Notes: generated from the letters alone by a model not told the origin. A stretch of 52,948 bases of DNA from Thermoproteota archaeon (GCA_038850115.1 JAWCMB010000005.1:1-52948); one strand, 5' to 3'. Counted from the first letter of the stretch, positions 202 through 43,970 are shown. Translations and numbers: made by a program.

Positions 202-756
202 GTGTATCCTCCTTCAGAGGACTCCTACATGGTTCTCGACATTGTCGAAAAGGTTGAAGCCAAAAGGATTCTTGAAATAGGCTGTGGAAGCGGTGTTGTT
301 TCACTGTCTCTTGCACGCAGAAACATCGAGGTTGTTGCGGTGGATGTCAACATAGAGGCGTGTAGAAACACTTTAGCCAATTTCAAGAGAAACAGGCTTC
401 AAGGGGTTGTGCATGTTGTAAACGGGGATCTTGCAACAGCGTTCAGGGATGGAGTCGGATTCGACGCGATAGTGAGCAATCCCCCCTATCTGCCGGTTGA
501 ACAGTCTCCCAACGAGGATCCGTCATGGGCTGCTGGTAAAGACGCTTCTTTATCAAGAAGGCTTTTGGAAAACACGCTTCCACTGCTGTCTGATGTTGGT
601 GTACTGTTTCTCGTGCATTCAAGCCTTCTTAGTGTGAACGGCTTGAAGAAGACTCTGGAGGAGAAAGGTTTCTTAGTTGAAGAAGCCTCCAGTAGAAGCT
701 TCTTTTTCGAAAAAATCATCCTACTCAGAATAAGCAGGAAGCCGACTAGTCTCTAG
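202..756 (+). CDS. HemK2/Mtq2-like N5-glutamine methyltransferase (release-factor methylase)
   Basis: VYPPSEDS N-terminal motif, SAM-binding LEIGCGSG, NPPY motif. The frame is open upstream to 151 without ATG/GTG/TTG. Confidence 0.85.
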   Translation: MYPPSEDSYMVLDIVEKVEAKRILEIGCGSGVVSLSLARRNIEVVAVDVNIEACRNTLANFKRNRLQGVVHVVNGDLATAFRDGVGFDAIVSNPPYLPVEQSPNEDPSWAAGKDASLSRRLLENTLPLLSDVGVLFLVHSSLLSVNGLKKTLEEKGFLVEEASSRSFFFEKIILLRISRKPTSL

Positions 757-1315
757 TAAATATACGGTATTTAACATCAGTAGACAGTTCTTCAACAACC
801 CTCTGTGCCATGAGTCTCGCAATCCCCTGTATTCCAGTCCTGTTTGAAAAATCTTCAAACGATGCGAAAGGCTTCCTAGCCCTCTCTTCAAGTATCTTCT
901 TAGCGTTCATCTTGCCGATGCTTGGAAGGAGCTCTATCGCGTGCATTTTAGGCGAGATGGATTGGAGATTGTTTAAAAGATCTATGAACCTAGACCAATT
1001 TTTCACGATTATGAATTCCGCAACCTCCGGGAGCATGAACCTAGCCTGGGGAGTGAGCTCACTGTATCTTATTCTTCCAAGCACGTTCTTAACCTGGGGC
1101 CTGTCACCCTTACCTATGAAAACCCTTTCCTTAGAGCCTAGCCTCACATGTGGAAAAAGAGAAACCTCTAAGAGGGTGAAATAGTTTTCGCCGAGTAGCT
1201 GTGCGTACGGCGAGTGCACGGGCCTGCCAACCCTGCTTAAAACCCTTCCTTCTTCCAAGAAGTCTAAAACATAGCCGTATTCTTCAAAAACTCTTTTACC
1301 CTTTGCAAAACTCAT
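746..1315 (-). CDS. DUF655 family putative RNA-binding protein
   Basis: EEYGYVLDFL...AQLLGENYFTLLE and C-terminal HhH-like LELLPSIGK...ERARKPFASFED pattern. Confidence 0.8.
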   Translation of the reverse strand: MSFAKGKRVFEEYGYVLDFLEEGRVLSRVGRPVHSPYAQLLGENYFTLLEVSLFPHVRLGSKERVFIGKGDRPQVKNVLGRIRYSELTPQARFMLPEVAEFIIVKNWSRFIDLLNNLQSISPKMHAIELLPSIGKMNAKKILEERARKPFASFEDFSNRTGIQGIARLMAQRVVEELSTDVKYRIFTRD

Positions 1316-1606
1316 TAAAACCGGCCTCCTTTCCAGATCTAGACAGTATGGGGAACCCTGGGTCGCGCTAGGGTTTTCCCGTATCTATCGCGCACTTCTT
1401 CCAGGGTTCTAAATGCCTTCATCGCCCTAATCAGTCGTATTTAACCATCAAGCATCTTAAGATAAAGTTTTTCTTCTGGCAGGGGGTTTATCCTCAAGCC
1501 TATGAGGATAAGGTATTTGTAGGAAAACATGACTTATCAGAGTTAATCTGAGGCTTGCTTAAACTTTTTAAACAGCCCCGGGGCGAAAAATAAGCAGGTA
1601 ATATAA

Positions 1607-2347
1607 ATGCTTTATTTAAAAAGCCTCGTCGTAGAGCTCGGGGGAAAAACTGTGATTAAAGGAGTAGACCTCCAAGTTAATCGCGGAGAGTTAGCCCTCC
1701 TCATGGGGCCTAATGGCTCAGGAAAATCCACACTCCTCCACGCGATAGTAGGCGATAAACGGTGTAGAGTGGTTTCAGGATCCCTATTCTTCGATGGAAA
1801 GGAGTTAACGGGCTTAACGATGGAGGAGAGGGTTAGGCTGGGTCTAGGCTTAGGCTTCCAGTTTCCACCGAGGTTGAAAGGCGTCAGGCTTAGGAGTCTA
1901 GCGCTGAGGATCCTTGAGAAAAGAGGCCTGCCGAGAGATGGGGCTGAGAGGCTCCTTGAAGAGTATTCGAGGCTCCTGAGGATGGAGGATCTTCTAGACA
2001 AGGATTTCAACGTGGGCTTTAGTGGTGGAGAAGCTAAGAGGGCTGAGCTGATGCTGACTCTTATTCAAAACCCACGCCTCCTGCTTTTGGATGAGCCTGA
2101 TTCTGGTGTCGACGTGGAGAATCTTGCACTCATAGGTTCAGCGATATCCCGCTATCTTTCTTCAGACGGGAGGGCAGCGATGCTGATAACTCACACGGGT
2201 TATGTTGCTAAGCACGTCAAGGCTTCTGAGGCGTATGTTCTGATCGATGGACGAATAGTATGCAGCGGAGACCCTGAGGAGATGGTTTCAAACATTATAG
2301 AGCACGGTTTTGAAGCGTGTGTGAACTGTAGGAGGGCTAGGCGTTGA
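1607..2347 (+). CDS. sufC: Fe-S cluster assembly ABC ATPase SufC (SmsC-type)
   Basis: Walker A GPNGSGKST, signature FSGGE, Walker B LLLLDEPDSG; coupled to SufBD; C-terminal CxxC. Confidence 0.9.
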   Translation: MLYLKSLVVELGGKTVIKGVDLQVNRGELALLMGPNGSGKSTLLHAIVGDKRCRVVSGSLFFDGKELTGLTMEERVRLGLGLGFQFPPRLKGVRLRSLALRILEKRGLPRDGAERLLEEYSRLLRMEDLLDKDFNVGFSGGEAKRAELMLTLIQNPRLLLLDEPDSGVDVENLALIGSAISRYLSSDGRAAMLITHTGYVAKHVKASEAYVLIDGRIVCSGDPEEMVSNIIEHGFEACVNCRRARR

Positions 2348-3549
2348 ACCTGGAAGAGGCTAGAAGAATACTTAAGCCGAAGGCTGATGAGGCTTTGGCG
2401 AAGCCGGCTCCGCACGGGTTAGACCTGAATCTTTCAGGTTTTAAGCTTGGAACAGGTTTTGGAACAGGAGTTGAGGGGTCTGAACGGATTTTAGAATCAG
2501 TTGGAATAGATATAGGGGAAAGGAACAGGTCTGGAAGCTACTACCAGGTGGATAACAGGGCAGTATATGCTTCCACCAGGCAGAGCGGGTTAACAGTTAA
2601 GCCACTAAGCGAGGCTCTTAAAGACCCTGAGAACCTGAACTACTATTGGAGGGCACTGCCAGTCGACACTGATAAGTATACTGCCACAGCATTCTTGGGG
2701 GAAAAAGAAGGGTACTTCATAAAGGTGGATGATGGTGTTAATGTTGAAACGCCCGTGCAAGCATGTCTCCTCTTAAGGACACCGGGTTTAATTCAGGCTC
2801 CGCATAACATAGTGGTGGTTGGCGAGAAATCTAAGGTGCACGTTATAACGGGATGTGCATCCATGAGGGAGGAGGCTGGCCTCCACATCGGAGTATCGGA
2901 GTTCTACGTGAAGAAGGGAGGCACCCTAACGTTCACAATGATCCACAGCTGGAGTAAAACCATCCATGTCAGGCCTAGGACAGTCACCCATGTTGAGGAG
3001 GACGGTGTCTTAATAAGCCACTACATAAATACTTCGCCAGTATCCTCTCTACAAACACATCCGGCAGCTCATCTAAACGGGAAGGGGAGCAGAGCCCACC
3101 TGTCATCCATAATAATGGGTAGGGGAGCATCCCATATAGATGTGGGCGGCGCCTTGGAATTGGGTGCTCCAGCATGCTCAGGCGAAGTACTGTCTAGAAC
3201 AATAGGCTTCGACAAGAGCGTAACCGTCGCCAGAGCTAGGGTTGCTGGTAAGGCTCCAGGGGTTAGGGGACATGTAGAATGCAGGGGACTATTACTGTCG
3301 AACGAGTCTAGGATTGACGCCATACCCGAGCTGGAGGCAAGGGTGCAGGATGTTCAACTGACGCATGAAGCCGCCATAGGCAGAATAGCTGAGGAGGAAC
3401 TCCTATACCTTATGGCAAGAGGATTTAGCGAGGAAGAAGCCAGATCAATAATAGTGAGAGGCTTCTTGAGCATTGAGCTTTCAGGCCTCCCTGAAAACCT
3501 AGTTAAATACCTGGAAAGCATCCTAGATCGTTTAGCTGCCTCGATCTAA
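2344..3549 (+). CDS. sufB: SufB/SufD-family Fe-S scaffold (SmsB-type)
   Basis: GHVECRGLLL...IDAIPEL...LTHEAAIGRIAEEELLYLMARG motif; 4-bp overlap with sufC. Confidence 0.9.
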   Translation: MNLEEARRILKPKADEALAKPAPHGLDLNLSGFKLGTGFGTGVEGSERILESVGIDIGERNRSGSYYQVDNRAVYASTRQSGLTVKPLSEALKDPENLNYYWRALPVDTDKYTATAFLGEKEGYFIKVDDGVNVETPVQACLLLRTPGLIQAPHNIVVVGEKSKVHVITGCASMREEAGLHIGVSEFYVKKGGTLTFTMIHSWSKTIHVRPRTVTHVEEDGVLISHYINTSPVSSLQTHPAAHLNGKGSRAHLSSIIMGRGASHIDVGGALELGAPACSGEVLSRTIGFDKSVTVARARVAGKAPGVRGHVECRGLLLSNESRIDAIPELEARVQDVQLTHEAAIGRIAEEELLYLMARGFSEEEARSIIVRGFLSIELSGLPENLVKYLESILDRLAASI

Positions 3550-3691
3550 GTTTAATTCTCAACGCGCCTACAATGTGGAAATGCGTTTTTCCGAGAGAAT
3601 TAAAGCGGTTGCTCCTTTCCTATTCACTATGAATAAGCTTTAAGTAAAAACCTGTTAATTTAACCTTTATTCCTTCTTAATGCAATAGGAA

Positions 3692-37193: not shown

Positions 37194-37862
37194 TCAACTG
37201 TTTTCAGGTTCTCCTGCGAAGGCTAGAGCATCATTAATTATGGTAACTAGGCTTTGGAAGCCGCGCTGAACCCTGCTTTCAGTAAGTTCTTTGACTGGAA
37301 GGATTACCTGTATCGCAGGTATCTTCTGAAACCTCGCCATGGCGACTGCAAGCGTCAGGGAACTCTTAATACGCTTCTCTTTTATTAGAACGTAATCCTC
37401 ATTATCCTTGAATCTTTCAGCAAGCTTTGAAGAGTTAACAATCAAGTATGCTTTCCTATTCTTACCCACAGTATTGGTGCAGTCAATGGTTAGGAGGAAA
37501 CGCGATCCGATCAGCCTCATAGTGTATAAAAGCGAGGAGAAAAACATGTTACGCTCCCTGTTTCCAAGAGAGTCAATATACTGTTGCCTAACCATCGTCG
37601 TGAAAACACTTATGTTGAAATCCCCAGTTTTGGCGTGGTAGACATCAACCGTAGGAATCTTGCCGACACCCATAGAGTCCACGATCAGATTGTCGGGAAA
37701 ACCGTAGAAAACAATCTCTCCAACTGGCCTCATGTTGAAAAGCCTGACAAGGTTCCCCGCCTGAATAACACCCATCCCGCTAGAACCCTCTAAGCCGAGA
37801 AACGTCAACCCCCTGCCGCTTATCCTCTCCCTAAGCAGTATCTCTATCAGCCTTCTTGGCAC
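37194..37862 (-). CDS. Divergent PAC2-family (proteasome assembly chaperone-like) protein
   Basis: GLEGSSGMG...VGEIVFYGFPDNLIVDSMG...PTVDVY pattern; GTG start abuts the IS right end. Confidence 0.5.
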   Translation of the reverse strand: MPRRLIEILLRERISGRGLTFLGLEGSSGMGVIQAGNLVRLFNMRPVGEIVFYGFPDNLIVDSMGVGKIPTVDVYHAKTGDFNISVFTTMVRQQYIDSLGNRERNMFFSSLLYTMRLIGSRFLLTIDCTNTVGKNRKAYLIVNSSKLAERFKDNEDYVLIKEKRIKSSLTLAVAMARFQKIPAIQVILPVKELTESRVQRGFQSLVTIINDALAFAGEPENS

Positions 37863-37865
37863 CCT

Positions 37866-37990
37866 CCTACCCGGGTAGGGTTCCCAATAAGGAGGGAAAC
37901 AATCCTATATTAAGATTTGGCATCTTGGGTTTCTCCTACCGGGGTAGGAAGCTCCCGGTTTGTCGACCTTGTGGCCTCATCCTACCGGGT
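37866..37990 (-). repeat. Three related CCTACC(C/G)GGTAGG hairpin/half-hairpin units (right end, omegaRNA region)
   Basis: cctacccgggtagg 37866..37879, tcctaccggggtagga 37934..37949, tcctaccgggt 37980..37990. Confidence 0.8.
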
Positions 37991-39010
37991 TCAGGGCCAT
38001 GCCAAACTGGCCCCTGCTATGCGCATGTAGCGCGTGGCCCGCTTCATTATGTTTATCGCGCCATTGTAGTCCGCGTTGCACGTGTAGTTGCAGGCTTCGC
38101 ACTTGAACATGCTTCCCTTACGGATCCCTACGCTTCCGCACCTGTGGCACAGCTTCGAAGTGCCTCTTTCGTTCACTTTGACAACCTTGATCCCCAGCCA
38201 CCTCGCCTTATACTCTATGAGCCCGCTGAGCTTGTAGTATGGGAATCCATTGAGCTTTCTGTTGAATACCTTGCCCCTATCTTCTTCTTTAATTCCCTTC
38301 AAGTCTCCCATCACAATCATCGCATCTGTCTCCAGCGCTTCGTTCACTATCCTCCTGCTTATCTTGTGCAGGATGTCGCTCACTATCCTTTGCTCCTTAT
38401 CTCCAAGCTTCTTGATTGCATTGTAAGCCCTCTTCACCGCCAAGCTCCTCCTCAAATAGAAGAAGTGTCCCCTTACCTTCCTCAGCTCCCTGCCGTAGAA
38501 CCTCGGAACCGGGTTGCTTGAATTCACCGTGACCGCTATCCATCTTATGCCCATGTCGATAGCTAGAATATTTTTCGGGGTTCTCTCCTCAACCTCCTTC
38601 TCAACACAGATCTGTACAAACCACTCGTCGCCCTTGCGAATCACTTTGGCCTCCTTAAGCTTCAAGTCACTCGTTATCGGCTCATGCGTCGTGATTAGGA
38701 CCTTTGCCCCTCCCCAAACGCCGTAAACAGGTATTTTAAACACGTAGGGGTATTGCTTAGTATCGATCCTGTACTTGTCGTTTCTCAGCATCAATGGATA
38801 TTCTTTCTCCTTTAGCTTCCCATTTAGTCTCTTAAGGAACCTGTCTGCTACTTGCTGGGTGGCAGAGTATAACGGAACCGATTTCTCGCCTCGCAGGTAT
38901 CGTTGGAAATTCTCGTATTCGCGCTCCAGAAGATCCCTCTCCTTCTCACTGAGCTCCAAAATCTTACCTTTTATAGTCTTCCTGGCTATGATATACCTTG
39001 GAGAAGACAT
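37991..39010 (-). CDS. tnpB: RNA-guided endonuclease TnpB
   Basis: RuvC-I ILAIDMG, RuvC-II region IVMGDL, zinc finger CHRCG...CEAC, RuvC-III NADYNGAINI; ATG 39010 preceded by GGAGGTG. Confidence 0.9.
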   Translation of the reverse strand: MSSPRYIIARKTIKGKILELSEKERDLLEREYENFQRYLRGEKSVPLYSATQQVADRFLKRLNGKLKEKEYPLMLRNDKYRIDTKQYPYVFKIPVYGVWGGAKVLITTHEPITSDLKLKEAKVIRKGDEWFVQICVEKEVEERTPKNILAIDMGIRWIAVTVNSSNPVPRFYGRELRKVRGHFFYLRRSLAVKRAYNAIKKLGDKEQRIVSDILHKISRRIVNEALETDAMIVMGDLKGIKEEDRGKVFNRKLNGFPYYKLSGLIEYKARWLGIKVVKVNERGTSKLCHRCGSVGIRKGSMFKCEACNYTCNADYNGAINIMKRATRYMRIAGASLAWP

Positions 39011-39201
39011 GCTACACCACCTCCTAGGAGCCGGGGCGATGATGCTGGCTAGTGCCGGTGGTCTAGGAAAAGCCACGCGTGGCCTATACTCGATTAAAGG
39101 CGGGCTTCAGCCGTTACAACGCAGACTAAAGTGCTCGCTCAAAAACGCCTGATTTCACGCCCCTCCACAGCTCCCAGGAATAAGATTCAGCCTAGGGGTA
39201 T

Positions 39202-39296
39202 ATAATTACTCTGATCGTACTCGAATCGCACTCAGATGAACTCAGACCGAATATAGATTGAACTCAGATAGTACACGGATGAACTTAGATCACAGA
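39202..39296 (+). repeat. Left helically phased repeat array (8 units of 10-11 bp, consensus AGAT(G/C/T)..ACTC)
   Basis: AGAT-like cores start at 39212, 39223, 39234, 39244, 39255, 39266, 39277, 39287. Confidence 0.85.
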
Positions 39297-40127
39297 GAAG
39301 AAGTTGAAAGAAGAAAGCTTTTTAGCGGGGGAAATATAGAGCGATTAAGGGTAAATGGGAGTGTTAAGCCACTTGGTGAGGCTTCTTTCCGCCCTCTTCC
39401 TCAGCATGTTTATCTCTTATACCGTTTATCGCGCCCTGGGCTGATTGATGCCCTCCTCTCCAGTATCATCGGGCTCGGCCTGATGATGAGCCTCCCCTTC
39501 ACGCTGATCTTTCTCTTTTACGGTAGGGTTCAATGGGCTAAATACGCCCTTGCCTTCATTTGGGCTGCATACCTCGTTGGAATCTGGACATACATGCTCG
39601 TAAGCATGGTGGTAACACTTCCAAGTTATCTTTGGATTCCAGTTATGGCAGCTTTCCTAGGGGGAATAGTAACTCTGGCCATTTGGAAGAGGAAGAAGCT
39701 TACCATCCCTTGGCCATTACAGAGGGATGTGGAGCCGAAAGTAAAGGGGCTTGAAGAAGGACTAGAGGAACGTGAAGAATTGGGCCGTTTAGAGGAGGAA
39801 AATAAAGAACTTTCTACTCTAGTAGAGTCCCTGAACGAAATTGAATGCAAGATATTATTGATGCTTCTGGAGTCGGAGAGGCAGTATTCTAAGAAGGAGC
39901 TTCAAGGCGCGGTTAAAGCCACTTATTCCAGGGTGTTGAGGGCGGTGGACGAGTTGAGCAGGCTTGGGCTAGTCGAGGTCACGGAGCTCCCGAGGAGGAC
40001 GAGGGGCGCGCCAATCCAACACATGGTGAAGGCTTCGGAAGACGTGTTAAAAAGTGGGCCCGAGGCAAAGAGGCTGGTCGAGAAGAGGCTCGTAAGACTG
40101 GAAAAGGCTGGCCCCAGTGCTAAATGA
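39258..40127 (+). CDS. Membrane protein (about 4 TM) plus coiled coil plus C-terminal winged HTH
   Basis: Hydrophobic block at about aa 62-143; EEREELGRLEEENKEL coil; ILLMLL...SKKELQGAV...YSRVLRAVDELSRLGLVEV wHTH. Start uncertain (TTG 39258 or ATG 39279). Confidence 0.7.
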   Translation: MNSDSTRMNLDHREEVERRKLFSGGNIERLRVNGSVKPLGEASFRPLPQHVYLLYRLSRPGLIDALLSSIIGLGLMMSLPFTLIFLFYGRVQWAKYALAFIWAAYLVGIWTYMLVSMVVTLPSYLWIPVMAAFLGGIVTLAIWKRKKLTIPWPLQRDVEPKVKGLEEGLEEREELGRLEEENKELSTLVESLNEIECKILLMLLESERQYSKKELQGAVKATYSRVLRAVDELSRLGLVEVTELPRRTRGAPIQHMVKASEDVLKSGPEAKRLVEKRLVRLEKAGPSAK

Positions 40128-40193
40128 CCTGTGTTCATCTGAGTGCGATCTGTATTCGATCTGAATTCATCTGAGTTCAATCAGAATAATTAT
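40127..40193 (-). repeat. Right phased repeat array, inverted relative to the left array (6 units)
   Basis: ATCT-like cores at 40127, 40137, 40148, 40159, 40169, 40180; the reverse complement aligns to the left array. Confidence 0.85.
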
Positions 40194-42423
40194 GAGGAGC
40201 CTCTTGAAAATTCAGGTCAAATTGATATCGTTGACGAGGTTCAGGAAAGTCGTCTACGAGAGAGTCGAGGTAACCGAGCTGGGGAAAAGGGTCGAAAGAC
40301 CTCCTACTAAGCATATAAGAACGTTTGAAGTCTTAGGAGCGAAGGTAATTCTTGGAAGGGATGCCTTCAAAATTTCTGGGAGGCTCATTTCCGAAGCGAG
40401 GCTGAGGTCAGCTGATCATAGCGACACCTCTTCTGAGCTTAGGATGCTTCGCGGCCTATTCATGAACGGTTTTGATGGCATGTTCACGGTGTCATATGAG
40501 CCGTTTAACTACGAGATGAGGCTTTCAACGGCATCCAGGTCTATCGAGGAGCTGGGTAAGATGTTCTCGAGAATGAGGGCAAGTGTGCATGCCGGATTCC
40601 CCGAAGCCGAACTCGAAACCCTCAACGCTTCTTCCGAGGTTGTCCTATGGCCGCTGGGCGGCCCACCGGTTTTAAGGTATAAGAACGCTTTGATCCTACA
40701 GAGAAGACAGGGATTCTCGGCAGCCTCATTTCTATCCATGAAGCCGGACGATTCACTTGATATCGTAGAAGATGCTTTGGAGAATGCTCTAAGATCCTCG
40801 GCAGAATCCGGATGCTCGCTTAGGTTTTGCGTTCCAATTAAATCGTGCAAAGGTATCCTTCATGCCTTAAGCTTATGGACTGAGAGGAGGAGAATCTCCT
40901 CGCGATATTCGAGGACCTACGAGAGGTTGATGAAGAAAGGGCTTCACAATAGCAGAGGGGAGCTTATAGGCTACAACTTGAGGGAATCCGCCGAGCTTGA
41001 GGAATTTCGCTTGAAGTATGAGAGACTCGATAGCAATGCTGGATGCTGGACATGCTCACTAATTATCGTCGTGATAGGACCTTCTGAAAAAGACCTCAAC
41101 CAAGCCTATCTGAGACAAAGGAACAATGTGGAGGCAGTTAAAGCAGCCTTCTCCTCCTCATATGGGATTAAGCTAGAAGAGGTCGGCCTGCTAAGCCTTG
41201 GTAGCGTAGCGAGGAGCATCCTTGAGAGGAAAATTGTAGACTTCAAGAAAGCCCACATGACTAGTGACGAGCTATCATTACTTGTAAATATTCCAAGGCC
41301 GATAACGCCGAGCATATCCTACACGCCAAGGAGAAACGTCGATTTTGGGGCCTTTGACCCAGCTGAGCTCAAGGGGAACGGAATAATGCTGGGCTATTAC
41401 GAGTCCATGGGGAGAAGGCTTGAGGTCAGAATAGGGATAGAGGACTTACCTCTCCACCTAGCCATATTTGGGGTTCCTGGCTCCGGTAAAAGCACTCTGG
41501 CAAAGGCACTCTTGAGAAGGTATAGGGAGCTCGGAGGCCCCATAATGGTTTTCGACAGGCACGGAGAATACATCAATGAATTTGATGACGCCATGGTTCT
41601 CAACACGGACAATGCTAGGATAAACCTCATGGACCATCATGGAGATCCAGAGGGACATGCCAAGATTCTAAGTGAGGTTTTTACAATGGCCTGGCCAAAT
41701 GAATTCGGACCATTAGTCTCCCACATCTTCAGAAGAATGTACTTTAGGTATATTAGGGAGGACAGTTGTCCAAATCTCGTTGACTTTCTGGAGTTCCTCG
41801 AGAAGAGTTTAGACTCCGAAGACTTAATGCTACTCCGCTCCGGTAAGGCTAGGGATAAGCTATTCTCGTTAGTCGGAAGGCTAAGTGAGCTTACGCAGGG
41901 CAACATCGGCAAAGTGTTTGACGTGGTTAGCAAGCAAGAAGACACGATGGAAAGGCTTCTTTCAGACACCGTTATCTTTGACTTGAGCGACATGGATACT
42001 GATAGGGATGCAAACATATTCGCATGGATAATGCTTAAACAGGTCTATGATTTCAGGAAGAGAAGAAAGTTAAGCAAAGGCCTACCACACGTTATAGTTT
42101 GCGAAGAGGTTCACAACATTGCTCCAGCTAAATTCGAGGGCCAGGAAACAATAGTCGAGAAGATGCTTAAGGAGATGAGGAAGTTCAAAGAATCTGTTTG
42201 GCTCATAGATCAAAGACCATTAACAGTATCGAGAGACGTTTTAGGATTATGCGGGACAATAATTTGCCTGAGACTACAATACTCAAGCGATGTCGAAAGA
42301 ATTGCAGATACAATGCATCTTAATGAAGAGCAAAGGCTGAAACTACAGGAGTTTAAACAGGGAGAAGCAATAGCGTTACTACCAGGAATAAGCACGGCAA
42401 TACCAGTTATATTGCAAGCATAA
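40192..42423 (+). CDS. HerA/FtsK/VirB4-superfamily ATPase (DUF87) with long N-terminal extension
   Basis: HLAIFGVPGSGKST Walker A, VFDRHGEY, VCEEVHNIAP Walker B, EMRKF...IDQRP, GEAI. Confidence 0.88.
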   Translation: MRSLLKIQVKLISLTRFRKVVYERVEVTELGKRVERPPTKHIRTFEVLGAKVILGRDAFKISGRLISEARLRSADHSDTSSELRMLRGLFMNGFDGMFTVSYEPFNYEMRLSTASRSIEELGKMFSRMRASVHAGFPEAELETLNASSEVVLWPLGGPPVLRYKNALILQRRQGFSAASFLSMKPDDSLDIVEDALENALRSSAESGCSLRFCVPIKSCKGILHALSLWTERRRISSRYSRTYERLMKKGLHNSRGELIGYNLRESAELEEFRLKYERLDSNAGCWTCSLIIVVIGPSEKDLNQAYLRQRNNVEAVKAAFSSSYGIKLEEVGLLSLGSVARSILERKIVDFKKAHMTSDELSLLVNIPRPITPSISYTPRRNVDFGAFDPAELKGNGIMLGYYESMGRRLEVRIGIEDLPLHLAIFGVPGSGKSTLAKALLRRYRELGGPIMVFDRHGEYINEFDDAMVLNTDNARINLMDHHGDPEGHAKILSEVFTMAWPNEFGPLVSHIFRRMYFRYIREDSCPNLVDFLEFLEKSLDSEDLMLLRSGKARDKLFSLVGRLSELTQGNIGKVFDVVSKQEDTMERLLSDTVIFDLSDMDTDRDANIFAWIMLKQVYDFRKRRKLSKGLPHVIVCEEVHNIAPAKFEGQETIVEKMLKEMRKFKESVWLIDQRPLTVSRDVLGLCGTIICLRLQYSSDVERIADTMHLNEEQRLKLQEFKQGEAIALLPGISTAIPVILQA

Positions 42424-42496
42424 CTAATTCCCTCCAGATTTCAGAAATCCCTGCCTTACTCTGCTTCTAATTCCCAAGCTCTTAAACCTCCCGCCG

Positions 42497-42784
42497 TTAA
42501 CCTGGCTTGACTGTCTCAGCCTTCTTCACATCCCTGTTAAACTGGATGAGGAGAGACACAACCCTACTATTAAGATTTAACGCGACAATCTTATTGGCTG
42601 AAAGCCTCTCAATCCTGATTAAGCCGAGCCTCAGAAGATTCTTAAGAGCCCTGTCCACACTGGAGGAGGAGCAGCCAGCCCTCCTAGCAAGCTCAACCTG
42701 CGTGAAAATAGTGTGGGGAGAGTTTAAAAGCTCCTCTAAAACCCTAGCCTGAACCCTGCTGGCGAAAACCTCACTCAGCCTCAT
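42497..42784 (-). CDS. Small winged-helix DNA-binding protein
   Basis: RVLEELL...TQVELARRAGCSSSSVDRALKNLLRLGLI; start at ATG 42784 (the longer ORF runs through tRNA-Leu). Confidence 0.75.
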   Translation of the reverse strand: MRLSEVFASRVQARVLEELLNSPHTIFTQVELARRAGCSSSSVDRALKNLLRLGLIRIERLSANKIVALNLNSRVVSLLIQFNRDVKKAETVKPG

Positions 42785-42834: not shown

Positions 42835-42933
42835 GCGGGGGTCGCCAAGCCAGGCCAAAGGCGGGAGGCTCAAGACCTCGGGGGAGGGACCTCTTCCCGT
42901 AGGGGTTCGTGGGTTCAAATCCCACCCCCCGCA
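42835..42933 (+). tRNA. tRNA-Leu(CAA) with 14-nt intron at 37/38 (42875..42888)
   Basis: GCGGGGG/CCCCCGC acceptor, GGAGG-CTCAAG|intron|A-CCTCT, long variable arm, GTGGG-TTCAAAT-CCCAC. Confidence 0.92.
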
Positions 42934-43043
42934 CTTCTCAAAATTGAGCATGCGTCTTGCCATATCTGCTGTGTTCAATTTTTTGGCTTTGAAAGTTTTA
43001 AATACAGAGCTTTTTATGAGGCGGAAATTTGATAGCGAGTCTA

Positions 43044-43970
43044 ATGAAGGCTGAGCATGCGCTGCTCCTTGCTTTACTATTCTCTTTTTCATCGACTGTG
43101 GTGTTTAATGTAAAAGCTGAGGGCCTTCAATCTAACCCTACAAATATTGAGGTTGGGGTTTGGCTTGTAAACGTGGAGAAGGTGGATTTGTCTGCAGGCA
43201 GCTATCGTTTGGATTTTTACCTTTGGTTTAGGTTTGATCCTTCTAAGATAAGCTTAGAGGATGTAAAGGAGTTCGAGTTTATTAATGGTTTTCCGACGAA
43301 ATATGAGGTTAAAGCAGATGCAGACCATGGGTATTTAGAATATCGTGTCAGAGGAGACTTTATAAAAACCTTCGATTTCTCAAGATATCCTTTCGAAATG
43401 CATACACTCACTGTGGAACTGGAGCACAAAAAACTAAATGCTTCTCATCTAATCTTTACAGCGGATCCGACCTCAAACATTGATAAGGATGTTAATGTCG
43501 CTGGTTGGGAAATAGAGGGATTTGAAGCCGCAGTAAGAGAACACTCTTATAGTGGCGAAGTCTACTCCAGACTCGTTTTCAGCGTTTCGCTAAAAAGACC
43601 TATGCTGTCCTCCTTTGTAAAAAGTGTTCTGCCAATAATAGTTATAACAACAATATCGCTACTGGCCTTTTTCATTTCTCCCCAGAACTTCGGCCAGAGA
43701 ATAGGCTTGGGTGTGACAACCCTTATGTCTGCGACGACTTTTCATCTGACATTGCTCAGTGGCATTCCTCCAATAGGTTACCTTACTTTTGCTGACAGAA
43801 TGATGCTTTTAATATACGCAATTTTCCTCTTCAACCTTTCAGTCTCAGTCTACATCATGAAGCTTGTAGACGCGAAAAAAGCTGAAGAAGCGCAAAAATT
43901 CAACAAGAAAGCATCAAAACTGTTAGCTATTATTATAATCGCCTTAGTAGTAATCCAGCTATTTGCCTAA
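43044..43970 (+). CDS. Pentameric ligand-gated ion channel (Cys-less Pro-loop, ELIC/GLIC-like)
   Basis: Signal peptide, VDL..GSYRLDFYLW, FDFSRYPFE Pro-loop, four TMs with RIGLGVTTLM (M2) and PPIGYLTFAD (M2-M3). Confidence 0.85.
   Translation: MKAEHALLLALLFSFSSTVVFNVKAEGLQSNPTNIEVGVWLVNVEKVDLSAGSYRLDFYLWFRFDPSKISLEDVKEFEFINGFPTKYEVKADADHGYLEYRVRGDFIKTFDFSRYPFEMHTLTVELEHKKLNASHLIFTADPTSNIDKDVNVAGWEIEGFEAAVREHSYSGEVYSRLVFSVSLKRPMLSSFVKSVLPIIVITTISLLAFFISPQNFGQRIGLGVTTLMSATTFHLTLLSGIPPIGYLTFADRMMLLIYAIFLFNLSVSVYIMKLVDAKKAEEAQKFNKKASKLLAIIIIALVVIQLFA

Follow-up and report, generated by a model that had tools for sequence, protein, structure and literature searches.

Mirror-image phased repeat arrays flank a membrane-anchored winged-helix gene in an archaeal mobile element

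The 52,948-nucleotide (nt) stretch of Thermoproteota archaeon DNA analyzed here (GCA_038850115.1, JAWCMB010000005.1:1-52948; the window) contains an inserted mobile element of 4.66 kb. The element consists of a tnpB gene on the minus strand, a conserved noncoding stretch, a cassette in which a membrane-anchored winged helix-turn-helix (wHTH) gene lies between two inverted arrays of short repeats, and an ATPase gene (Table 1). The same gene order is found at at least ten chromosomal sites in related archaeal metagenome-assembled genomes, whose records are labelled Thermoproteota or Candidatus Brockarchaeota. The wHTH family shows a patchy distribution and occurs in 9 of 26 genomes examined from the class. 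An earlier note on this DNA described the arrays, the wHTH gene and the ATPase gene but missed the mobile insertion, in which tnpB is included.

Table 1. Coordinates of the features in and around the element
Feature	Position	Strand	Basis or remark
Left array, eight units	39210..39295	+	Repeat search, periodicity, locus comparison
Right array, six inverted units	40127..40184	-	Repeat search, periodicity, locus comparison
Outward-facing TATA-like box TATATAAT, leader side	39199..39206	-	Abuts unit 1 in all loci; predicted promoter
Outward-facing TATA-like box AATAATTA, ATPase side	40185..40192	+	37 nt upstream of TTG 40222; predicted promoter
Probable TATA box and transcription factor B (TFB) recognition element (BRE) of the wHTH gene, AAAGCTTTTTAG	39314..39325	+	36 nt upstream of ATG 39355; predicted promoter
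Membrane-anchored wHTH gene	39355..40127	+	ATG from homologue alignment; frameshifted copy
ATPase gene, 733 residues from the conserved TTG	40222..42423	+	Pfam DUF87, TrwB_AAD_bind and TraG
Conserved structured leader upstream of tnpB, ~165 nt	39013..39180	-	DNA comparison and consensus fold
tnpB, 339 residues	37991..39010	-	NCBIfam guided_TnpB, 187 bits; Pfam
Whole inserted mobile element, 4,659 bp	37857..42515		Empty sites in four sister genomes
TnpB-distal end, right-end/omega-RNA-like region	37857..37990	-	Alignment of element ends across loci
ATPase-distal element end, 92 bp, not conserved between loci	42424..42515		End comparison
Left copy of the target-site duplication, 10 bp, TCAGCCTTCT, host sequence	37847..37856		Single copy in empty sites
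Right copy of the target-site duplication, 10 bp	42516..42525		Comparison with empty sites
Host MarR-like wHTH gene, outside the element	42497..42784	-	Adjoins orf222 in element-free genomes; Pfam MarR_2

Phased arrays and the boxes that they abut

The left array is built from units with GAT-type cores at positions 39213, 39224, 39235, 39245, 39256, 39267, 39278 and 39288 (steps of 11, 11, 10, 11, 11, 11 and 10 bp). The cores of the right array are located on the opposite strand at positions 40127, 40137, 40148, 40159, 40169 and 40180 (steps of 10, 11, 11, 10 and 11 bp). The unit numbers and spacings are exactly those described in the earlier note. As an inverted repeat, the two arms pair over 52 nt with 81% complementarity (39218-39269 and 40137-40188; repeat finder), and the right arm is also detected by Tandem Repeats Finder with periods of 11 and 21. 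An autocorrelation analysis using 5,000 random windows from the same genome as a control confirmed the phasing. For each array, the identity at lags of ~11, ~21 and ~32 is equalled by ~0.06-0.08% of the random windows, which places both arrays within the top ~0.1%. When the 1.96-Mb assembly was scanned with the unit motif, clusters of at least three units were observed only at the arrays, in addition to one weak cluster in contig C37, and a BLAST search with the array did not find a second copy in the genome. The arrays are unique in the genome, and the concern that they could be the ends of a miniature inverted-repeat transposable element (MITE) spread over the genome was not borne out.

An arm is present on each side of the cassette in 13 of 13 homologous loci (designated L plus a number), each with 4-8 units, steps of 10-12 bp and the core YNGAT. 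Homologous gene pairs without arrays, an outcome that had been named as decisive against a link, were not encountered among these loci, and the arrays are a conserved, nonrandom feature linked to the wHTH-ATPase gene pair. In the more distant homologues L043 and L044, an array is found only between the wHTH stop codon and the ATPase start codon, which points to the ATPase-proximal array as the older, core feature. The unit sequence is specific to each locus. Units fall into two clades, GATCGTAC-like and GATGrCAC-like, which are paired with the recognition helices TYPRVLRAV and TYKRVLKAV, respectively, and with changes in the wing. In clade 2, the same arm is 80-93% identical between loci and the partner arms within a locus are 74-79% identical; therefore, selection seems to preserve how the units are arranged at each promoter rather than how alike the repeats are.

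The outermost unit abuts an A/T-rich 12-mer in all 13 loci, GTATATWRWYAT on the leader side and YTCATAAWYAT on the ATPase side. On the leader side, the box precedes the base at which the leader's closing helix begins by ~30 nt. The distance from the ATPase-side box to the ATPase start codon, which is measurable in five other loci (L038, L041, L045, L064 and L078), is 35-37 nt in those loci and 37 nt in the window. Moreover, the motif AAAGC(A/T)TTT(C/T)TA is conserved 36-37 nt before the wHTH start codon, just inside one arm. The distances of the two outward boxes are those that general archaeal promoter architecture predicts for a TATA box serving a leaderless or near-leaderless transcript.

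Proteins, structured leader and inversion of the cassette

In the wHTH protein, four transmembrane (TM) helices are followed by a disordered acidic linker, which leads to a winged helix of the MarR/Lrs14 type and a C-terminal helix. The homologues all begin with MG(V/M)LGHL, which corresponds to ATG 39355 in the window, and the apparent ORF start within the array (39258/39279) is an artefact. The window copy has a 1-nt deletion in a G-run at ~39440 (39434-39447; CTGGGCTG versus CTGGGGCTG in contig C12 of genome G007), and this missing G shifts the frame of the first TM helix. The G007 copy is 97% identical to the window copy, intact and 257 residues long, and the deletion in the window may reflect real decay or a homopolymer assembly error. 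Structure prediction, which had been proposed as a check, was performed for each protein. The AlphaFold model of the wHTH protein has a MarR/Lrs14 fold and a predicted local distance difference test (pLDDT) score of 72, with values of 80-89 across the winged-helix domain, in which both a recognition helix and a β-wing are modelled. Foldseek matched the protein to MarR and to Sulfolobus AbfR2 and ST1889 (probability 1.0; E-value of about 2e-3). Sequence profiles gave scores below their curated cut-offs (NCBIfam Lrs14, 26.5 versus 90 bits; Pfam TrmB, 19 versus 25.6 bits), and the Sta1 match was also weak. The wHTH family comprises seven clusters among 5.8 billion proteins, and the exact L060 protein is not on record. 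These clusters, like all relatives in the databases, are unnamed.

The ATPase is composed of an N-terminal domain of ~390 residues (N-domain) and a HerA/DUF87 P-loop domain, without a TM segment. Its conserved start codon is a TTG, or an ATG in the AT-rich locus L078, and lies 35-37 nt downstream of the A/T box. The ATG at 40192, where the right arm ends, had been noted as the ATPase start but is not conserved as such: in L037, L038, L045 and L059 it is followed by an in-frame stop codon. Among NCBIfam models, CedD matches the ATPase best, with 112 bits where the cut-off is 600 bits; VirB4 models score about 20 bits, and the FtsK_SpoIIIE profile gave no match. The profiles place the motor with HerA/DUF87, CedD and VirB4, and the closest solved structures are those of Sulfolobus HerA (4d2i) and defence-associated HerAs. 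For the N-domain, 11 relatives were found in 1.84 billion representative proteins. In a Foldseek search, TrwK/VirB4 of plasmid R388 occupied the top six positions (E-values, 2e-8 to 2e-6; TM-scores, about 0.23); this match is a lead only, given that the AlphaFold model was derived from a shallow alignment of 13 sequences and is poor (pLDDT of 46). The ATPase had been called HerA/VirB4-like; its HerA-like nature is supported by sequence, whereas its VirB4-like nature is indicated only by the weak fold match.

A distant homologue, P0028 (locus L077; Logan contig SRR34261217, gene 536-3592), is a single chain of 1,018 residues in which two TM helices and a winged helix are joined to the rare N-domain and the HerA ATPase. 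The winged helix of P0028 is 33% identical to that of the cassette protein over 80 residues, and GGGTAGT-type repeats and a 21-bp inverted repeat are located ~200 nt upstream of the P0028 gene. A fusion of this kind speaks for a physical interplay of the wHTH protein with the ATPase and is in keeping with a partnership located at the membrane.

TnpB contains the RuvC D/E/D residues and a zinc finger, as observed in an alignment to solved Cas12f/TnpB structures, and the tnpB gene is 73-77% identical between loci. The leader DNA upstream of tnpB is ~76-80% identical across loci in which the wHTH proteins share only 41-56% identity. On the tnpB strand, the leader has a multi-helix consensus fold with 44 pairs, and compensatory changes are seen at 9 of these. 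In its closing helix, CCUGGGAGC pairs with sequence beside a strong Shine-Dalgarno sequence, GGAGGUGG. An identical leader type precedes open reading frames (ORFs) that are unrelated to TnpB in L045 (390 residues) and L040 (533 residues); therefore, the leader belongs to the wHTH/ATPase module and not to a TnpB insertion sequence, and the gene behind the leader looks like an exchangeable slot. PD-(D/E)xK motifs in these two replacement ORFs were noted by eye only and are supported by no profile. The leader was also considered as the left terminus of an independent TnpB insertion sequence; this possibility was rejected, since a decayed element copy continues from the leader through the array to the wHTH promoter and since the leader precedes non-TnpB genes. 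No Rfam family was assigned to the leader, the end region or the arrays at the gathering threshold or at E-values up to 5 (37700-40300).

The ~1-kb segment between the arms is reversed relative to its collinear flanks (tnpB and the leader on one side and the ATPase gene on the other) in three independent lineages, a rearrangement that the earlier note did not consider. The flipped pairs are L059/L060/L061 versus L048, L037 and the window, and L039 versus L041; the third case is L078, the AT-rich relative. The break points of the inversions lie within the arms, where the BLAST alignments change strand. The arms are 94-98% identical to each other in L037, L048 and L059 and form an 80-bp exact inverted repeat in L078. 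In most loci, including the window (~80%), the identity is 74-84%. Between the nearly identical strains L059 and L060, one arm differs by a single unit. The flips, the near-identical arms and the difference in unit number indicate that exchange between the arms is recurrent. Three assemblies of one species share a single orientation, and JGI metagenome contigs matched neither the flipped nor the unflipped junction of the window element, an uninformative outcome. Because the outward boxes are positioned at the outer edges of the arms and the predicted wHTH promoter inside them, a flip alters only the choice of the neighbour that is co-directional with the wHTH gene and has a divergent control region in common with it.

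A candidate operator function and its alternatives

With moderate confidence, the arrays are proposed to be operators, that is, cis-acting binding sites, of the element's own membrane-anchored MarR/Lrs14-type wHTH protein. The proposal builds on the conserved phased arms and their fixed position beside the A/T boxes, on the pairing of unit clades with recognition helices, on the MarR-like fold of the DNA-binding domain and on the repeated motifs upstream of the P0028 gene. The structured leader and tnpB would be transcribed from one outward box and the VirB4/HerA-like ATPase gene, as a leaderless transcript, from the other; one arm would reach, at its inner end, to just upstream of the regulator's own promoter. 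Cooperative binding of the wHTH protein on one face of the helix could then exert joint control over the nuclease gene, the ATPase gene and the regulator gene itself. This control would probably be repression, because unit 1 appears to lie where TFB would bind the BRE. Two divergent promoters that share one operator design would give rise to the mirror symmetry, and the ~1-kb cassette would be flipped by arm-arm recombination, whether incidentally or as a property that is put to use. The position of the arrays beside the putative TATA-like boxes best supports the alternative offered in the earlier note, an autoregulatory switch for the ATPase. The arrangement resembles the iteron-like operator or centromere arrays to which autoregulatory DNA-binding proteins bind and the archaeal Lrs14/AbfR/Sta1-type regulators, in which phased short repeats lie by promoters and a small MarR/Lrs14-like wHTH is followed by a C-terminal helix. 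It differs in the four TM helices and acidic linker of the regulator, in the inverted arrays that flank the regulator's own gene and in the inversion of the cassette.

Several observations weigh against the operator proposal. The A/T boxes are predicted promoters, identified from sequence only. The apparent co-variation of units and recognition helices is drawn from two clades and is confounded by phylogeny. The near-perfect 40-80-bp arms of L037, L048, L059 and L078 suggest that the repeats are also kept alike by recombination. The P0028 fusion suggests a mechanical rather than a purely regulatory role for the wHTH protein, and a four-TM anchor is unusual for a transcription factor.

The second-ranked explanation, unlikely but compatible with regulation in the manner of centromere-binding autoregulators, is that the arrays are loading sites for a DNA pump. 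The anchored wHTH protein would recruit a hexameric ATPase via repeats similar to clt/TRS (TraB recognition sequence) or KOPS (FtsK-orienting polar sequence) for DNA export or import. The union of all four modules (TM helices, winged helix, N-domain and HerA ATPase) in P0028 is consistent with this explanation, as are the matches of the ATPase to the CedD, HerA, TrwB and TraG profiles and its top fold match to VirB4. CedD is required for DNA import in Saccharolobus (PMC11868833), and the winged helix of Streptomyces TraB reads direct 8-bp repeats in clt (PMC4447253). Moreover, an element that is found patchily, at many insertion sites, without a transposase of its own needs a route between cells. 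However, no channel component (VirB6, CedA) or pilus gene is found in the element or its flanks at any locus, the CedD score of the ATPase is far below the cut-off and the ATPase model is poor. A loading site also has no need of strict abutment to TATA-like boxes.

The TraB/clt system is similar to the element in that a membrane anchor, a hexameric P-loop DNA ATPase and a winged helix are combined on a small mobile element with a nearby cis locus of short direct repeats, which in TraB is recognized by the winged helix. In the element, in contrast, the anchor and the wHTH domain reside in one protein and the motor in another, and the two are fused only in P0028. The motor belongs to the HerA/VirB4 clade rather than the FtsK clade, and the units are 10-11 bp long and arranged in two inverted phased arrays that abut promoters. 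The VirB4/CedB/CedD/TedB ATPases share the N-domain plus HerA-type ATPase architecture, with CedD as the best NCBIfam match and, on the poor model, TrwK/VirB4 as the best fold match. They differ from the element ATPase, which has an almost unique N-domain family and no VirB6, CedA or pilin partner nearby.

A programmed invertible switch, in which the arms would be recombination sites and a flip would toggle which neighbour (the ATPase gene, or the leader with the nuclease gene) is co-directional with the wHTH promoter and has a divergent control region in common with it, is rather improbable. The exact inversion of the cassette between the arms in three lineages is in line with such a switch, and the near-identical arms of L037, L048, L059 and L078 and the unequal unit numbers of L059 and L060 suggest ongoing exchange. 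No recombinase family was found among the element proteins or the neighbouring genes, however, and the three assemblies of one species show one orientation. The arms of most loci, the window among them, are just 74-84% identical, and occasional flips over evolutionary time would be accounted for by homologous recombination between repeats of 60-80 bp. Bacterial invertons (Hin, Fim and shufflon-type) also carry inverted repeats around a segment of ~1 kb that is present in both orientations among relatives. In the element, however, an invertase gene is lacking, the arms are made of tandem units and measure 60-90 bp, the flanking promoters are outside the segment and the flips are seen between lineages.

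It is very unlikely that the arrays are iterons of a replication origin or that they serve an integrated replicon of the plasmid type as its partition centromere. The resemblance to iteron and centromere arrays lies in the phased direct repeats and their two inverted blocks, but Pfam and NCBIfam searches found no Rep, ParA, SegA or primase gene in the element, which is integrated with a target duplication. The least tenable explanation, terminal inverted repeats of an independently mobile ~1-kb MITE or insertion sequence-like cassette with TAATTA as the target site, can account for the inverted repeat ends TAATTA(C/T)TCTGAT on both sides but was rejected, as the arrays are single-copy in the genome, the cassette always lies between the leader and the ATPase gene in 13 loci with co-diverged proteins, TAATTA belongs to the conserved A/T boxes at a fixed distance from start codons and the decayed copy keeps the leader, array and wHTH promoter contiguous.

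A defence-system function was also considered and not adopted; PADLOC gave generic HerA and Cas12f/TnpB matches only. The element is similar to HerA-nuclease pairs (HerA-NurA and the SIR2-HerA and DUF4297-HerA defence systems) in that a HerA-type ATPase gene is located by a nuclease gene, with a PADLOC HerA score of up to 83 bits. It differs in that the partner is TnpB or another ORF rather than NurA, SIR2 or DUF4297, the wHTH protein and the arrays are additional components and the whole unit is mobile.

The combination of mirror-image phased arrays, an invertible regulator gene, TnpB with its leader and an ATPase on a target-duplicating 4.7-kb element matches no described system that was found. 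The element is not a classical IS200/IS605 element, and the ATPase is neither an FtsK/TraB protein nor an equivalog of CedD or VirB4. If the operator proposal is true, the locus represents a compact, conserved regulatory design not described in archaea, in which a membrane-anchored wHTH protein controls an RNA-guided nuclease and a translocase-like ATPase via two mirror-image phased operator arrays, between which its own gene can flip. The presence of TnpB inside a larger element with 10-bp target duplications, in a genus without Y1 transposase, bears on the spread of TnpB elements and on the role of TnpB outside classical IS200/IS605 elements. The fusion in P0028 provides a testable link from HerA/VirB4-type ATPases to FtsK/TraB-like sequence-directed DNA handling. 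A more speculative proposal, to which little credence is given, is a new class of transposase-free archaeal mobile element. A minimal DNA translocase in the membrane, made up of the wHTH protein and the ATPase, would load on the arrays and move the element between cells; TnpB or, in some copies, another nuclease would cut the empty target for homing, and the cassette would toggle between an ATPase mode and a nuclease mode.

Insertion site, element ends and host genes

The insertion was delimited by empty sites in four genomes of the same genus (G002, G009, contig C47 of G010, and G016), in which orf222, a proteasome-assembly-chaperone-like host gene, and the MarR-like gene are directly adjacent. 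The empty sites thus identify the MarR-like gene and the neighbouring tRNA gene as host DNA. The second wHTH gene that had been described as converging on the ATPase gene is indeed present, but it is unrelated host DNA outside the element. The insertion split a host operon, and in the unsplit operon the stop codon of the MarR-like gene overlaps the start region of orf222 (37847-37862 and 42497-42525). The C-terminus of the MarR-like protein is altered by the insertion and reads VKKAETVKPG in the window versus VKKADRDTA in the empty sites.

Target duplications were sought in nine element copies. They are clear in the window and in L059 (TAGAAGAATT, 10 bp), and the decayed copy L055 matches at 9 of 10 bases. 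In L037, L038, L062, L064 and L041, the duplication is absent or scrambled, and duplication-free copies perhaps arose by recombination between element copies. A shared target-adjacent motif was not derivable from the three sites.

The 3′ end of tnpB and a structured end-like region form the left insertion boundary, with the element end 134 bp past the stop codon; consequently, a TnpB guide would read into the flanking host DNA. In the window, the TnpB-distal end contains two tandem end-like copies with the palindromes CCTACCCGGGTAGG (37866-37879) and CCTACCGGGGTAGG (37935-37948), whereas other element copies have one. The left terminus is TGGCA in the window and TGACA elsewhere, and all copies have TG(A/G)CA. 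Intact TnpB catalytic residues and a boundary formed by the tnpB 3′ end and a structured region are shared with IS200/IS605 (IS1341-type) TnpB elements. The element is distinguished from them by its size with two extra genes, its long structured 5′ leader, the replacement of TnpB by unrelated ORFs in two loci and its target duplication of 10 bp, since IS200/IS605 elements insert without one. In addition, Y1 transposase (PF01797) is absent from 17 of 17 genomes of the genus, and control genomes were positive.

The window genome, G000, contains four decayed element copies (contigs C67, C4, C27 and C14) that keep the tnpB 3′ end. The 3′ part of the ATPase gene is also kept in C67 and C4, and the leader and array are kept in C27. 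Decayed copies with internal deletions are present in other genomes as well. A palindromic sequence, (T)TA-GCGCGCGC-TA(A), is found at deletion junctions and element termini (contig C67 of G000 at 2122; L016, which is contig C52 of G007; L063; and the right ends of L037, L048 and L059). The palindrome that bears GCGCGCGC replaces 11 nt within one wHTH pseudogene. The genome contains 37 GCGCGCGC sites versus ~20 expected, most of them as A-GCGCGCGC-T with A/T-rich flanks.

The host tRNA gene (42835-42933), which was missed by ARAGORN, was detected by Rfam at 42.5 bits. A homologue of pentameric ligand-gated ion channels is encoded next to this tRNA gene (43029-43970) and is present only in the window genome and G007 among the 17 genomes of the genus.

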